Positions 44,466 through 53,020 of a stretch of 64,000 bases of DNA are shown piece after piece. Under the pieces are notes generated by a model, which saw only the letters and a list, made by a program, of their open reading frames with translations, ran no database searches and was not told where the DNA came from. Made by a program: the position numbers and the translations under genes. This stretch comes from Escherichia coli (GTDB taxonomy: Bacteria > Pseudomonadota > Gammaproteobacteria > Enterobacterales > Enterobacteriaceae). The stretch is taken from NCBI RefSeq assembly GCF_001677475.2, contig NZ_CP015229.1. One strand, 5' to 3'. How positions within the stretch are numbered: the first letter of the stretch is position 1; each line of letters starts with the position of its first letter.

Positions 44466-45698
44466 ATGTCGTCATTTGATTACCTGAAAACTGCCATCAA
44501 GCAACAGGGCTGCACGCTACAGCAGGTAGCTGATGCCAGCGGTATGACCAAAGGGTATTTAAGCCAGTTACTGAATGCCAAAATTAAAAGCCCCAGCGCG
44601 CAAAAGCTGGAGGCGCTGCACCGTTTTTTGGGGCTTGAATTTCCCCGGCAGAAGAAAACCATTGGTGTCGTATTCGGTAAGTTCTACCCGCTGCATACCG
44701 GACATATCTACCTTATCCAGCGCGCCTGTAGCCAGGTTGACGAGCTGCATATCATTATGGGTTTTGACGATACCCGCGACCGCGCGTTGTTTGAAGACAG
44801 CGCCATGTCGCAGCAGCCCACCGTGCCGGATCGTCTGCGCTGGTTATTGCAAACCTTTAAATATCAGAAAAATATCCGTATTCATGCTTTCAACGAAGAG
44901 GGCATGGAGCCGTATCCGCACGGCTGGGATGTGTGGAGCAACGGCATCAAAAAGTTTATGGCTGAAAAGGGGATCCAGCCGGACCTGATCTACACCTCGG
45001 AAGAAGCCGATGCGCCACAGTATATGGAACATCTGGGGATCGAAACGGTGCTGGTCGATCCGAAGCGTACCTTTATGAGTATCAGCGGTGCGCAGATCCG
45101 CGAAAACCCGTTCCGCTACTGGGAATATATTCCCACCGAAGTGAAGCCGTTCTTTGTGCGTACCGTGGCGATCCTTGGCGGTGAGTCGAGCGGTAAATCC
45201 ACCCTGGTAAACAAACTTGCTAATATCTTCAACACTACCAGTGCATGGGAATATGGTCGCGATTATGTCTTTTCACACCTTGGCGGTGATGAGATCGCAT
45301 TGCAGTATTCCGACTACGATAAAATCGCGCTGGGACACGCTCAATACATTGATTTTGCAGTGAAATATGCCAATAAAGTGGCGTTTATTGACACTGATTT
45401 TGTCACTACCCAGGCGTTTTGTAAAAAGTACGAAGGGCGTGAGCATCCGTTCGTGCAGGCGCTGATCGATGAATACCGTTTTGATCTGGTTATCTTGCTG
45501 GAGAACAACACCCCTTGGGTGGCGGATGGTTTACGCAGCCTCGGCAGTTCGGTGGATCGCAAAGAGTTCCAGAACTTGCTGGTGGAGATGCTGGAAGAGA
45601 ACAATATCGAATTTGTGCGGGTTGAAGAGGACGATTACGACAGCCGTTTCCTGCGCTGTGTGGAGCTGGTGCGGGAGATGATGGGGGAGCAGAGATAA
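44466..45698 (+). CDS. nadR: NadR: NAD biosynthesis regulator / NMN adenylyltransferase / ribosylnicotinamide kinase
   Basis: 410 aa from the internal ATG; N-terminal HTH, GKFYPLHTGH adenylyltransferase motif, Walker A GGESSGKST. Confidence 0.95.
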   Translation: MSSFDYLKTAIKQQGCTLQQVADASGMTKGYLSQLLNAKIKSPSAQKLEALHRFLGLEFPRQKKTIGVVFGKFYPLHTGHIYLIQRACSQVDELHIIMGFDDTRDRALFEDSAMSQQPTVPDRLRWLLQTFKYQKNIRIHAFNEEGMEPYPHGWDVWSNGIKKFMAEKGIQPDLIYTSEEADAPQYMEHLGIETVLVDPKRTFMSISGAQIRENPFRYWEYIPTEVKPFFVRTVAILGGESSGKSTLVNKLANIFNTTSAWEYGRDYVFSHLGGDEIALQYSDYDKIALGHAQYIDFAVKYANKVAFIDTDFVTTQAFCKKYEGREHPFVQALIDEYRFDLVILLENNTPWVADGLRSLGSSVDRKEFQNLLVEMLEENNIEFVRVEEDDYDSRFLRCVELVREMMGEQR

Positions 45699-45736
45699 TC
45701 ATCTTTATAAGATGTTGAGTGGGATTACTAATTCAA

Positions 45737-45771
45737 AAGTGTACTTAGTACTCCATTTCGGTGTACAATGT
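45737..45771 (+). promoter_or_regulatory. Two operator-like 13-mers (GTGTAC-N3-GTAC) in the promoter of the toxin-antitoxin pair
   Basis: gtgtacttagtac (45737-45749) and gtgtacaatgtac (45759-45771), centres 22 bp apart, just upstream of the SD ggagggg and the ATG at 45790. Confidence 0.4.
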
Positions 45772-45789
45772 ACCTGCCAGGGAGGGGTG

Positions 45790-46122
45790 ATGGGCAAGGC
45801 GATAATATTTATAGAGACGCCAATGTTTACGCGTCAGATCAAGCAGATTGCAACCGATGATGAATTAAAGGAATTACAAAAAGAACTCATCGGAACTCCC
45901 GATAAAGGTGATCTCATTCAGCAGACTGGTGGATTGCGTAAAGTCCGAATGGCTGCGGGTTCACAGGGAAAAAGTGGCAGTGTCAGAATAATTTACTTTC
46001 TGGCGACGGAAGAGATTATTTATTTGATTATGGCCTATCCGAAAAATGCCAAAGATAGTCTGACAGATACGGAAAAAGCTCAACTAAAGAAGTTGACGAA
46101 ACTGCTCAAAGGCGAGGTATAA
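45790..46122 (+). CDS. RelE/ParE-superfamily toxin, HigB-2 / Gp49-like
   Basis: 110 aa; GTGGLRK-V/I-R ... GKSGS-RIIYF ... AYPKN...LT core matches HigB-2-type toxins as I recall them; toxin-first gene order. Confidence 0.65.
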   Translation: MGKAIIFIETPMFTRQIKQIATDDELKELQKELIGTPDKGDLIQQTGGLRKVRMAAGSQGKSGSVRIIYFLATEEIIYLIMAYPKNAKDSLTDTEKAQLKKLTKLLKGEV

Positions 46123-46123
46123 A

Positions 46124-46408
46124 ATGAGTTTTTTTGATGAGTTGAAAACCTCTCTGGAAGAGGCTGTCGAGATTAAACAAGGTTTAAAAGAACCTGCACG
46201 GGTGACCCGCTACGAAATTGCGGATGTTAAAGCTATTCGTGAGCAACTCAACGTTTCTCAAAGTGAGATGGCAAAAGCTCTGGGAACCAGTGTGGATACC
46301 ATTAAAAGCTGGGAATCGAAGCGAAGAAATCCTACGGGATTGGCTGCAAAAGTACTTGCCACAATTAAAGAAAATCCTGCCTTTTTCCGGGAACTTGCCT
46401 CCCATTAA
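46124..46408 (+). CDS. XRE-family HTH antitoxin, HigA-2-like
   Basis: 94 aa; starts 1 nt after the toxin stop; C-terminal HTH LNVSQSEMAKALGTSVDTIKSWESKRRNPTG. Confidence 0.65.
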   Translation: MSFFDELKTSLEEAVEIKQGLKEPARVTRYEIADVKAIREQLNVSQSEMAKALGTSVDTIKSWESKRRNPTGLAAKVLATIKENPAFFRELASH

Positions 46409-47224
46409 TCATTTAACTAATACCGGATGCGATGCTGGCGCGCCGCACCCGGCATTTTACGCATTACTTCGCAATACGCTTGTACTTGATACGCTTCGGC
46501 TCCAGCGCGTTTGCGCCCAGCGTGCGTTTTTTGTACTCTTCGTACTCGGTAAAGTTACCTTCGAAGAACTCAACTTTACCTTCATCCTGGTAGTCCAGGA
46601 CGTGGGTGGCGATATGGTCGAGGAACCAACGGTCGTGCGAGATAACCATCGCGCAGCCCGGGAACTCCAGCAGGGCGTTTTCCAGCGCGCGCAGGGTTTC
46701 GATATTCAGGTCGTTAGTTGGTTCGTCGAGCAGCAGCATGTTGCCGCCAACCTGCAGCAGCTTCGCCAGATGCAGACGACCGCGCTCACCACCGGAAAGT
46801 TCACCAACGCGTTTACCTTAAAGTTAAAGCGGCCAACGTAGGCGCGGCTTGGCATCTCGGTGTTGCCGATCTTCATGATATCCAGCCCGCCGGAAACTTC
46901 TTCCCAAACGGTTTTGCGGTTATCCATTGAGTCACGGAACTGATCAACCGATGCCAGTTTCACCGTTTCACCCAGAGTGATAGTGCCGCTGTCCGGCTGT
47001 TCCTGACCAGAGATCATACGGAACAACGTCGATTTGCCCGTACCGTTCGGACCGATGATCCCGACGATCGCTCCTTTCGGGATCGAGAAGCTCAGGGAGT
47101 CAATCAGCAGACGATCGCCATAGGATTTACGCAGGTTGCTGACTTCCAGCACTTTGTCGCCCAGACACGGTCCAGGTGGAATAAACAGTTCGTTGGTTTC
47201 GTTGCGTTTCTGATATTCGGTGCT
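46371..47224. repeat. Direct repeat copy 1 (~855 bp): antitoxin 3' end plus a decayed ettA 3' third
   Basis: About 95 percent identical to 51271-52126, with small deletions (for example ~14 bp near 46815) and scattered substitutions. Confidence 0.85.
46464..47224 (-). pseudogene. ettA 3'-terminal fragment (second ABC-F ATPase domain), frameshifted
   Basis: ORFs 46464..46739 and 46706..47152 together are collinear with the C-terminal ~250 aa of EttA but in two frames, with several substitutions relative to the intact copy. Confidence 0.85.
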
Positions 47225-51270: not shown

Positions 51271-52126
51271 AAAATTTTGCTTTTTTCCGGGGACTAATCA
51301 TTTAACTAATACCGGATGCGATGCTGGCGCGCCGCATCCGGCATTTTACGCATTACTTCGCAATACGCTTGTACTTGATACGCTTCGGCTCCAGCGCGTC
51401 TGCGCCCAGCGTGCGTTTCTTGTACTCTTCGTACTCGGTAAAGTTACCTTCGAAGAACTCAACTTTACCTTCATCCTGGTAATCCAGAATGTGCGTGGCG
51501 ATACGGTCGAGGAACCAACGGTCGTGCGAGATAACCATCGCGCAGCCCGGGAACTCCAGCAGGGCGTTTTCCAGCGCGCGCAGGGTTTCGATATCCAGGT
51601 CGTTGGTTGGTTCGTCGAGCAGCAGCATGTTGCCGCCAACTTGCAGCAGCTTCGCCAGATGCAGACGACCGCGCTCACCGCCGGAGAGTTCACCAACGCG
51701 TTTACCCTGATCAACCCCTTTAAAGTTAAAGCGGCCAACGTAGGCGCGGCTTGGCATCTCGGTGTTGCCGATTTTCATGATATCCAGCCCGCCGGAAACT
51801 TCTTCCCAAACGGTTTTGCTGTTATCCATTGAGTCACGGAACTGATCAACCGATGCCAGTTTCACCGTTTCACCCAAAGTGATGGTGCCGCTGTCCGGCT
51901 GTTCCTGACCAGAGATCATACGGAACAGCGTCGATTTACCCGCACCGTTCGGACCGATGATCCCGACGATCGCCCCTTTCGGGATCGAGAAACTCAGGGA
52001 GTCAATCAGCAGACGATCGCCATAGGATTTACGCAGATTGCTGACTTCCAGCACTTTGTCGCCCAGACGCGGTCCAGGTGGAATAAACAGTTCGTTGGTT
52101 TCGTTACGTTTCTGATATTCGGTGCT
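51271..52126. repeat. Direct repeat copy 2 (~855 bp): degenerate antitoxin 3' remnant plus the intact ettA 3' third
   Basis: Partner of 46371-47224; here the ettA portion is intact and the ~40-bp antitoxin-end remnant carries a deletion. Confidence 0.85.
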
Positions 52127-53020
52127 GTTCAGTTCTTCAAAGCGCGCCAGACGTGCTTTACCTTTCGACTGACGGCCTTTAGTACCTTGACGTACCCACT
52201 CCAGCTCTTTCTCAATCGACTTACGACGCGCAGCTTCTTGTGAAGCTTCCTGCGCCAGACGCTGATCTTTCTGCTCCAGCCAGGAGGAGTAGTTACCTTC
52301 CCACGGAATACCTTCACCGCGGTCCAGTTCGAGGATCCAGCCCGCAACGTTATCGAGGAAGTAACGGTCGTGGGTAATCGCCACAACGGTGCCTTCGAAG
52401 TCGTGCAGGAAGCGTTCCAGCCAGGCCACGGATTCGGCATCCAGGTGGTTGGTCGGTTCGTCGAGCAGCAGCATGTCTGGTTTTTCCAGCAGCAGGCGGC
52501 ACAACGCCACGCGACGACGCTCACCACCGGAGAGGTTAGCGATTTTCGCGTCCCAGTCCGGCAGACGCAGCGCATCCGCCGCACGCTCCAGCTGAACGTT
52601 CAGGTTGTGACCGTCGTGAGCCTGAATGATCTCTTCCAGACGGCCTTGTTCAGCGGCCAGCTTGTCAAAATCGGCATCCGGATCGGCGTACAGTGCATAC
52701 ACTTCATCCAGGCGTTTCAGGGCGTTAACCACTTCAGAAACCGCTTCTTCAATGGACTCACGCACGGTGTGTTCCGGGTTCAGCTGCGGTTCCTGCGGCA
52801 GATAACCAATCTTGATATCCGGTTGCGGACGCGCTTCGCCTTCGATGTCTTTATCAATGCCCGCCATAATGCGCAGCAGGGTGGACTTACCCGCGCCGTT
52901 CAGACCCAGGACACCAATTTTTGCCCCAGGGAAGAAACTCAGAGAGATGTTTTTCAAAATATGACGTTTCGGCGGAACAACTTTGCCGACACGATGCATG
53001 GTATAAACGAATTGAGCCAC
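51353..53020 (-). CDS. ettA: Energy-dependent translational throttle protein EttA (ABC-F ATPase)
   Basis: 555 aa; two ABC domains with Walker A GLNGAGKST and GPNGAGKST and LSGGE signatures. Confidence 0.95.
   Translation of the reverse strand: MAQFVYTMHRVGKVVPPKRHILKNISLSFFPGAKIGVLGLNGAGKSTLLRIMAGIDKDIEGEARPQPDIKIGYLPQEPQLNPEHTVRESIEEAVSEVVNALKRLDEVYALYADPDADFDKLAAEQGRLEEIIQAHDGHNLNVQLERAADALRLPDWDAKIANLSGGERRRVALCRLLLEKPDMLLLDEPTNHLDAESVAWLERFLHDFEGTVVAITHDRYFLDNVAGWILELDRGEGIPWEGNYSSWLEQKDQRLAQEASQEAARRKSIEKELEWVRQGTKGRQSKGKARLARFEELNSTEYQKRNETNELFIPPGPRLGDKVLEVSNLRKSYGDRLLIDSLSFSIPKGAIVGIIGPNGAGKSTLFRMISGQEQPDSGTITLGETVKLASVDQFRDSMDNSKTVWEEVSGGLDIMKIGNTEMPSRAYVGRFNFKGVDQGKRVGELSGGERGRLHLAKLLQVGGNMLLLDEPTNDLDIETLRALENALLEFPGCAMVISHDRWFLDRIATHILDYQDEGKVEFFEGNFTEYEEYKKRTLGADALEPKRIKYKRIAK

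Follow-up and report, generated by a model that had tools for sequence, protein, structure and literature searches.

The stretch analysed here, 64,000 nucleotides of Escherichia coli contig NZ_CP015229.1 (assembly GCF_001677475.2; hereafter the window), carries downstream of nadR a two-gene cassette that we regard with high confidence as a chromosomal type II toxin-antitoxin (TA) operon of the HigB-2/HigA-2 family. The initial annotation had described a toxin-first, HigB-2/HigA-2-like pair of a known class, and indeed Vibrio cholerae HigB-2/HigA-2 are the best solved matches to both products, in sequence and in predicted fold, with a clear gap in the fold matches before the next families. The general features of type II TA systems are also present: the two genes are small, adjacent and co-directional, they are separated by 1 nt, and the pair recurs in 56 of the 57 related loci (48-82% identity) recovered by scanning one genome per species, the exception being a locus that stops 9 nt past the toxin match. 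Judging from its sequence, the operon is very probably functional.

HigB-2-type relatives are ribosome-dependent RNases that are neutralised by the N-terminus of their antitoxin (PMC5416850). By homology, the toxin of the window would be a RelE-fold, ribosome-dependent mRNA endonuclease, which a poorly ordered N-terminal segment of the antitoxin would wrap and inactivate. The C-terminal XRE helix-turn-helix (HTH) of the antitoxin would dimerise and bind two GTAC-N3-GTAC palindromes lying over the -35 and -10 positions, so that the antitoxin would repress the promoter of its operon, aided by the toxin as corepressor; once the labile antitoxin is lost, the toxin would be set free and translation would stop. 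In all probability the cassette is a mobile addiction module that reached the nadR-ettA site before the extant E. coli lineages diversified. In most of them, K-12 included, it has since decayed to a relic that has no toxin gene and bears the name 'nadS'.

The cassette is already known, in that it is annotated in RefSeq as a 'RelE/ParE family toxin' followed by a 'NadS family protein' and is listed as TA30 ('parE-3/yiaG-2') in E. coli NRG857c/CFT073, where the same cassette occupies the same nadR-ettA site (PMC7232551). That survey calls the toxin ParE-like and describes the K-12 spacer as 'lacking these TA genes', whereas we find a HigB-2/PF06296 toxin and a relic in K-12; neither the survey nor RefSeq reports experiments or an operator for the cassette. 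For the field little changes, as structural and biochemical work on the family exists for Vibrio and Acinetobacter, while annotation and a TA survey already cover the E. coli copy.

The toxin and antitoxin proteins

With 40.2 bits over residues 13-106, the toxin passes the gathering threshold of Pfam family PF06296, which is 27 bits, and V. cholerae HigB-2 itself scores in this family only (33.5 bits). The initial annotation had proposed a Gp49/HigB-2-type toxin of the RelE superfamily. The HigB-2 part of this stands, as does the motif it quoted (TGGLRKVRMAAGSQGKSGSVRIIYF...AYPKN), but the Gp49 family, PF05973, had to be rejected, since the toxin reaches only 19.6 bits against a cut-off of 23.9, over a partial match (residues 43-105) that overlaps the PF06296 one. 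The protein is therefore better filed as HigB-2/PF06296 than as ParE or Gp49.

Sequence matches to solved structures lead to the same family, the best of them all being HigB-2 (E 7.5e-17, residues 6-102). An AlphaFold (AF2) model built with 24 homologues (pLDDT 86) has the beta-alpha-alpha-beta-beta-beta-alpha order of solved HigB-2, with strands at residues 6-9, 49-55, 64-71 and 76-84 and helices at 11-20, 23-35 and 93-109; a further helix at 57-62 is of low confidence and falls in a loop that is disordered in HigB-2. When the model was searched against the PDB, ranks 1-11 were all HigB-2, with template modelling (TM) scores of 0.73-0.83 and 34-36% identity in the structural alignment, and the next match had an E-value of 8e-3. 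The catalytic residues are intact: R53, R66, Y83 and K85 correspond to R51, R64, Y82 and K84 of HigB-2 and are invariant across the 24 aligned toxins. In HigB-2 these four are active-site residues, mutation of which lowers activity 170- to 3000-fold (PMC5416850). The V. cholerae pair (VCA0468/0469; PDB 5JA8, 5JAA, 5J9I and 8A0X; PMC5416850, PMC11006873) further resembles the cassette in its toxin-first order and toxin length (~110 aa, against 110 here); it lies in a superintegron, however, and not between core genes.

The antitoxin belongs to the NCBIfam NadS equivalog NF041265, which it matches over its whole length (182.6 bits against a cut-off of 60; residues 1-94 of 94). The XRE HTH that had been placed at its C-terminus is confirmed by an HTH_3 match (40.4 bits) at residues 35-79. 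HigA-2 chains are its closest solved relatives by sequence (E 2e-6) and occupy all of the top eight places in the fold search, where the C-terminal domain superimposes with TM scores of 0.77-0.87 and a root-mean-square deviation (rmsd) of 1.4-2.1 A. In the model, an N-terminal helix (residues 3-18, pLDDT 53-59) is followed by a disordered linker (19-34, below 50 at 22-29) and a five-helix C-terminal XRE HTH domain (35-93). This modular layout is that described for HigA-2, a disordered N-terminal part ahead of a C-terminal XRE HTH. Foldseek aligns the antitoxin full length to 5JAA chain A, residues 1-32 being without sequence alignment to HigA-2, and for this N-terminal part the model offers a resemblance, not proof. 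Across the family, the recognition helix (TSVDTIKSWExKRRNPTGLAAKVL) shows next to no variation.

The two genes are coupled, with a single base (46123) between the toxin stop and the antitoxin start, in agreement with the initial annotation's description of a translationally coupled pair. Since a GAGG ribosome-binding site within the 3' end of the toxin gene serves the antitoxin gene, coupling of their translation is plausible on the sequence. Among the homologues, the conserved MS(F/I)F start of the antitoxin mostly lies 1 nt after the toxin stop or in a 4-nt overlap with it. In three homologous loci (L053, L054 and L058) the toxin gene is truncated, to 66, 94 and 79 aa respectively, and the antitoxin gene is intact at 94 aa, an order of decay that is the same as in E. 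coli K-12.

A further relative, HigB2/HigA2 of Acinetobacter baumannii plasmid pAB120, has a toxin of the same family and a toxin-first operon but is plasmid-borne, less than 60% identical and without a defined operator sequence in the report describing it (PMC5906591). For this pair, experiments have demonstrated RNase activity, stabilisation of plasmids and autorepression by the antitoxin, in which the toxin acts as corepressor (PMC5906591).

Palindromes upstream of the toxin gene

The spacer upstream of the toxin gene contains two 13-bp boxes, GTGTACTTAGTAC and GTGTACAATGTAC, which lie 22 bp apart from start to start and in which the two GTGTAC-N3-GTAC elements two helical turns apart of the initial annotation are recovered. 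GTGTACNNNGTAC has no other exact match in the window, so that the two boxes are well beyond chance; if one mismatch is allowed, the window has 7 matches against 1.7 expected.

The palindrome is conserved family-wide. Of 50 distinct homologous loci, 45 have GTAC-N3-GTAC no more than 150 nt ahead of the toxin start, amid otherwise unrelated sequence, as compared with five occurrences in 346 kb of the same loci outside these upstream zones. The consensus of the homologous boxes is an inverted repeat, GGTGTAC-wwT-GTACAC. Two boxes are present in seven of the 50 upstream regions, and in six of these they are 20-22 bp apart. Within Escherichia, the boxes are unchanged in E. coli B2, ST131 and O169:H41 and in E. 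fergusonii, while neighbouring spacer bases vary. This conservation bears out the earlier suggestion that the promoter elements are consistent with autoregulation by the antitoxin, and the boxes are very probably the antitoxin operator. The hexamer TACAAT within the proximal box is likely the -10 element of the cassette promoter, which would place the distal box over the -35 position; the boxes of homologues, too, overlap with -10 candidates of the TACnnT type. For DNA-binding work, the motif provides a ready candidate operator for the whole family, in contrast to the single long operator of V. cholerae HigA-2.

The layout finds its closer analogy in MqsA of E. coli rather than in HigA-2. The antitoxin HTH resembles the C-terminal domain of MqsA (PF15731 E 5.6e-4; PDB 3FMY, TM 0.76, rmsd 1.4 A). 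The mqsRA promoter carries two AACCT-N3-AGGTT palindromes. MqsA recognises this short palindrome with its 3-bp spacer (PMC4894380). The palindrome sequence differs from the one found here, the toxin of the window is not MqsR-like, and its antitoxin has no N-terminal zinc-binding domain. Membership of the MqsA family was rejected, TIGR03830 giving 38 bits against a cut-off of 61.8 and covering the C-terminal 60 residues only, and PF15731 reaching 20.5 bits against a cut-off of 30. The 94-aa antitoxin contains no cysteine, and the likeness is confined to the HTH domain.

Three cassettes (L017, L019 and L050, from an Enterobacter metagenome-assembled genome, Lelliottia and Pseudenterobacter) are devoid of GTAC-N3-GTAC and share a different upstream sequence. 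Their toxins have altered C-termini, and 17-78 nt separate the toxin gene from the antitoxin gene. They may represent a sub-lineage with a different regulatory arrangement.

The nadR-ettA site and the interpretation of the cassette

In the initial annotation the cassette was taken to have been inserted after nadR, at a site that in K-12 would be short and empty. Neither statement holds. The K-12 spacer measures 307 bp (L002 2049-2355; the length is also given in PMC7232551) and holds recognisable remains of the cassette, the counterpart of which in the window is 46101-46240. Of the toxin gene it retains the final ~22 nt, including the GAGG/toxin-end stretch, followed by the 1-nt gap and ~110 nt of the antitoxin gene, with a repetitive extragenic palindromic (REP) sequence in place of the remainder. 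Since parts of both genes are kept, the K-12 spacer is, on comparison with the window, a deletion relic of the cassette and not an empty site. The toxin-deletion junction found in K-12 is shared by 3617 of 5426 complete E. coli genomes, and E. fergusonii carries the cassette at the same site, so that the direction of change proposed earlier has to be reversed.

The K-12 relic, to which the Prokaryotic Genome Annotation Pipeline (PGAP) gives the name nadS, is an open reading frame of 55 aa that consists of antitoxin residues 1-38, the first 22 of them identical, and a REP-derived tail, without the HTH; it departs from the intact gene at eight nucleotides, all of them in codons 21-38. It has been reported by PIRT-seq to be translated (PMC12350097). 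The recently reported small protein NadS of K-12 is accordingly a truncated antitoxin without its DNA-binding domain, which tempers speculation about its function. One side reading, which we hold more weakly, is that the translated relic may neutralise incoming plasmid toxins of the HigB-2 type and so act against addiction. In its favour, the first 22 residues, from the neutralising N-terminus, are unchanged. We downgraded this role, as the K-12-type relic has lost its start codon in many strains, with an ATG-to-ATA change and a frameshift in REL606, Nissle, YJ3, O45:H2 and WP9, and is flagged as a pseudogene by PGAP.

The intact state is less common. The 424-nt promoter-plus-toxin stretch was found, at a coverage of at least 80% and an identity of at least 95%, in 672 of the 5426 genomes, always on the chromosome, and the reading frames were checked in seven sampled copies. 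The site further occurs with a REP-only spacer (strain AR_451) and, in 439 genomes, with the antitoxin relic fused to a 4-kb island. The initial annotation's notion of a small insertion hotspot is therefore half right: the site is variable, with at least five allelic states, but these reflect mostly decay, REP elements, an insertion sequence (IS) and the neighbouring 4-kb island, and not repeated small insertions. The IS, marked by an 'integrase core domain' gene, lies between nadR and the toxin gene in E. coli Z1323HEC0355 (L063 1463-2563). There, the match to the window spacer resumes at ~45735, just upstream of the distal box, and the element may alter expression of the cassette. One PLSDB entry that matches the toxin at 100%, NZ_CP134663.1, is listed as an E. 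coli 'plasmid' of 4.9 Mb; it is evidently a misfiled chromosome and does not represent plasmid carriage.

In E. fergusonii ATCC 35469 the cassette likewise stands between nadR and ettA, and its toxin protein is identical to that of the window. Because this second species has the same cassette in the same place, the comparison indicates that the cassette is old at the nadR-ettA site and that most E. coli have lost it there. A comparison of seven copies from E. coli and E. fergusonii gave 0-2 non-synonymous as against 1-7 synonymous differences in the toxin and antitoxin genes. The nadR genes of cassette-bearing genomes have a synonymous divergence (dS) of 0.25-0.34 and a non-synonymous divergence (dN) of ~0.001 (window 44466-45698 against L001, L067, L068 and L069), which is unusually deep; at synonymous sites nadR is so exceptionally polymorphic that E. 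coli lineages stand as far from one another as from E. fergusonii. For the cassette copies dS is 0.015-0.054, and for the ettA 3' end 0.065-0.088. In the ST131 strain 5392, nadR, the spacer and the cassette are nearly identical to those of E. fergusonii ATCC 35469, while 69 of 1233 nadR positions differ between the ST131 strain and the B2 type strain. The sequences suggest inter-species recombination at the nadR-cassette region, and recombination clearly shuffles that region. One might go further and suppose that the intact cassette is an addictive allele that is still moving by homologous recombination and re-invading relic-bearing lineages, even between E. coli and E. fergusonii. The low divergence of cassette copies on deeply divergent nadR backgrounds and the allele shared by the ST131 strain with E. 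fergusonii would be compatible with this, but we consider it unlikely.

Beyond Escherichia, the 57 loci come from Serratia, Enterobacter, Pectobacterium, Pantoea, Xenorhabdus, Photorhabdus, Yersinia, Halomonas/Vreelandella, Thioalkalivibrio and others, and none of them has an ettA orthologue beside the cassette. The scan was not exhaustive, as it returned no Escherichia locus even though the cassette is present in ATCC 11775 and in E. fergusonii, and absence from the nadR-ettA site of other genera therefore cannot be concluded from it. Copies of ~80% identity are found on 4-7 kb plasmids of Yersinia, Citrobacter, Pectobacterium, Hafnia, Serratia, Shigella and Klebsiella, and in view of these Enterobacterales plasmid copies the first arrival of the cassette must have been by transfer. 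Such copies, for example on 5.2-kb plasmids of Yersinia ruckeri and 7-kb plasmids of Shigella boydii, hold the same pair at 78-83% protein identity, with GTAC-N3-GTAC upstream; unlike the chromosomal E. coli cassette, which has two boxes and an ATG start, the copies on these mobilisable plasmids usually have one box and a GTG start. More distantly, tblastn gave toxin-family matches on 272 Acinetobacter plasmids.

Several points weigh against an active HigB-2/HigA-2-type operon. Chromosomal TA pairs in many cases have little or no activity. We found no experimental work in the literature on this E. coli cassette, the toxicity, neutralisation and DNA binding of which are all carried over from relatives. 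A consensus scan of 45600-46520 called no sigma-70 promoter upstream of the toxin gene, because the candidate -35 is too weak. The N-terminal half of the antitoxin, which is modelled with low confidence, cannot be aligned to HigA-2 by sequence. Finally, V. cholerae HigA-2 binds one inverted repeat, TGTACGC-N5-GCGTACA, which contains TGTAC and overlaps the -10 (PMC11006873). Its 7-bp arms are separated by a 5-bp spacer and its GTAC cores lie 13 bp apart, as compared with 7 bp in each of the two palindromes found here, and three of the four base-contacting residues of HigA-2 are altered in the antitoxin (R68/E71/N72/R77 to D58/K61/S62/R67). As both half-site spacing and contact residues differ, the V. 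cholerae binding mode is not simply transferable.

An alternative is a domesticated or inactive relic, in which the toxin would no longer be toxic and NadS would regulate transcription in the ordinary way, perhaps in connection with nadR or NAD metabolism. The name nadS and a remark that the gene is 'co-conserved with nadR' (PMC12350097) fit such a view, as do the fixed place that the cassette has next to nadR in both E. coli and E. fergusonii, the translation of the K-12 fragment and the survival of the antitoxin gene beyond its toxin in K-12-type genomes and in L053, L054 and L058. The association with this neighbourhood does not extend to the 57 loci of other genera, however, where the cassette is never beside an ettA orthologue and yet toxin and antitoxin stay paired in all but one, and many copies are on 4-7 kb plasmids. 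Moreover, the toxin retains its catalytic residues and few non-synonymous changes are seen, while the K-12-type fragment is without the HTH and often a start codon and is annotated by PGAP as a pseudogene. We consider this interpretation improbable.

Quite improbable, in our view, is also a chromosomal role that lies mainly in abortive-infection defence against phages, with the toxin being freed when infection stops host transcription, and not in addiction or stabilisation. Several RelE-superfamily TA pairs do protect against phages, the presence of the cassette is patchy across strains, and both proteins have full-length matches to phage/prophage PHROG families of unknown function (phrog_5869, 101 bits; phrog_2104, 78.5 bits). 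Against this, PADLOC gave no match to a defence model beyond a generic HTH, the flanks are core genes without neighbouring defence genes, and a search of 50,697 phage records gave only six copies, all distant (<60% identical). The experimentally demonstrated role of a relative, moreover, is plasmid maintenance.

Coordinates and neighbouring sequence

The nadR gene ends at 45698 and a 91-bp spacer precedes the toxin gene, the start of which was favoured over an in-frame upstream ATG at 45712 on account of the homologous N-termini (VSHAIEFIET / MGKAIIFIET). The features of the cassette are collected in Table 1.

Table 1. Features of the nadR-ettA cassette, in window coordinates; regulatory elements and protein functions are predicted
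Feature	Position	Strand	Remarks
Toxin gene	45790..46122	+	ATG 45790, TAA 46120-46122; 110 aa; predicted HigB-2-type RelE-superfamily mRNA endonuclease, PF06296
Antitoxin gene	46124..46408	+	ATG 46124, TAA 46406-46408; 94 aa; NadS family, HigA-2-like
Shine-Dalgarno sequence of toxin gene, GGGAGGGG	45780..45787	+	Ends 2 nt short of ATG 45790
GAGG, ribosome-binding site for antitoxin	46114..46117	+	Within 3' end of toxin gene
Distal operator box, GTGTACTTAGTAC	45739..45751	.	GTAC-N3-GTAC palindrome, predicted operator; spans expected -35 position
Proximal operator box, GTGTACAATGTAC	45761..45773	.	GTAC-N3-GTAC palindrome, predicted operator
Putative -10 hexamer, TACAAT	45764..45769	+	Inside proximal box; read from sequence
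Candidate -35, TGTACT	45740-45745	+	18-bp spacer to TACAAT; 3/6 consensus matches
REP-like GC-rich stem-loop	46423..46452	.	Between antitoxin gene and convergent ettA; possible bidirectional terminator, weak assignment

The stem-loop downstream of the antitoxin gene folds with -16.2 kcal/mol, at a z-score of only -1.4 relative to shuffled sequences, no significant gain in stability over them, and a consensus scan called no terminator there. Rfam gave no match across 45500-46600.

The heptamer TAATCAT is found both at the nadR stop (45696-45702) and at the antitoxin stop (46406-46412), a 7-bp direct repeat that exactly flanks the cassette. It could be an insertion scar or could have arisen by chance, the odds being ~1 in 256 for the four bases that come after TAA. 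A synthetic junction query for the precise empty site, in which the TAATCAT of nadR is fused to the sequence following the antitoxin gene, found no such site among the high-coverage matches listed; these were two-piece joins across the K-12-type spacer and never single-piece.

Further downstream, the window contains a frameshifted 3' fragment of ettA (46464-47224, minus strand), then an island of ~4 kb (47225-~51300) and an intact ettA (51353-53020, minus strand). The island holds a truncated OYE-like gene together with DUF1471, SRPBCC, SDR, aldo/keto reductase and LysR genes, and is present in 482 of the 5426 genomes. The junction between the ettA fragment and the island is common only to the window and strain GF43. 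In the 439 genomes with the fused relic, the same island end, TCATACTCCAACCGACC, is joined to codon ~43 of the antitoxin relic, which gives one island end two left partners.

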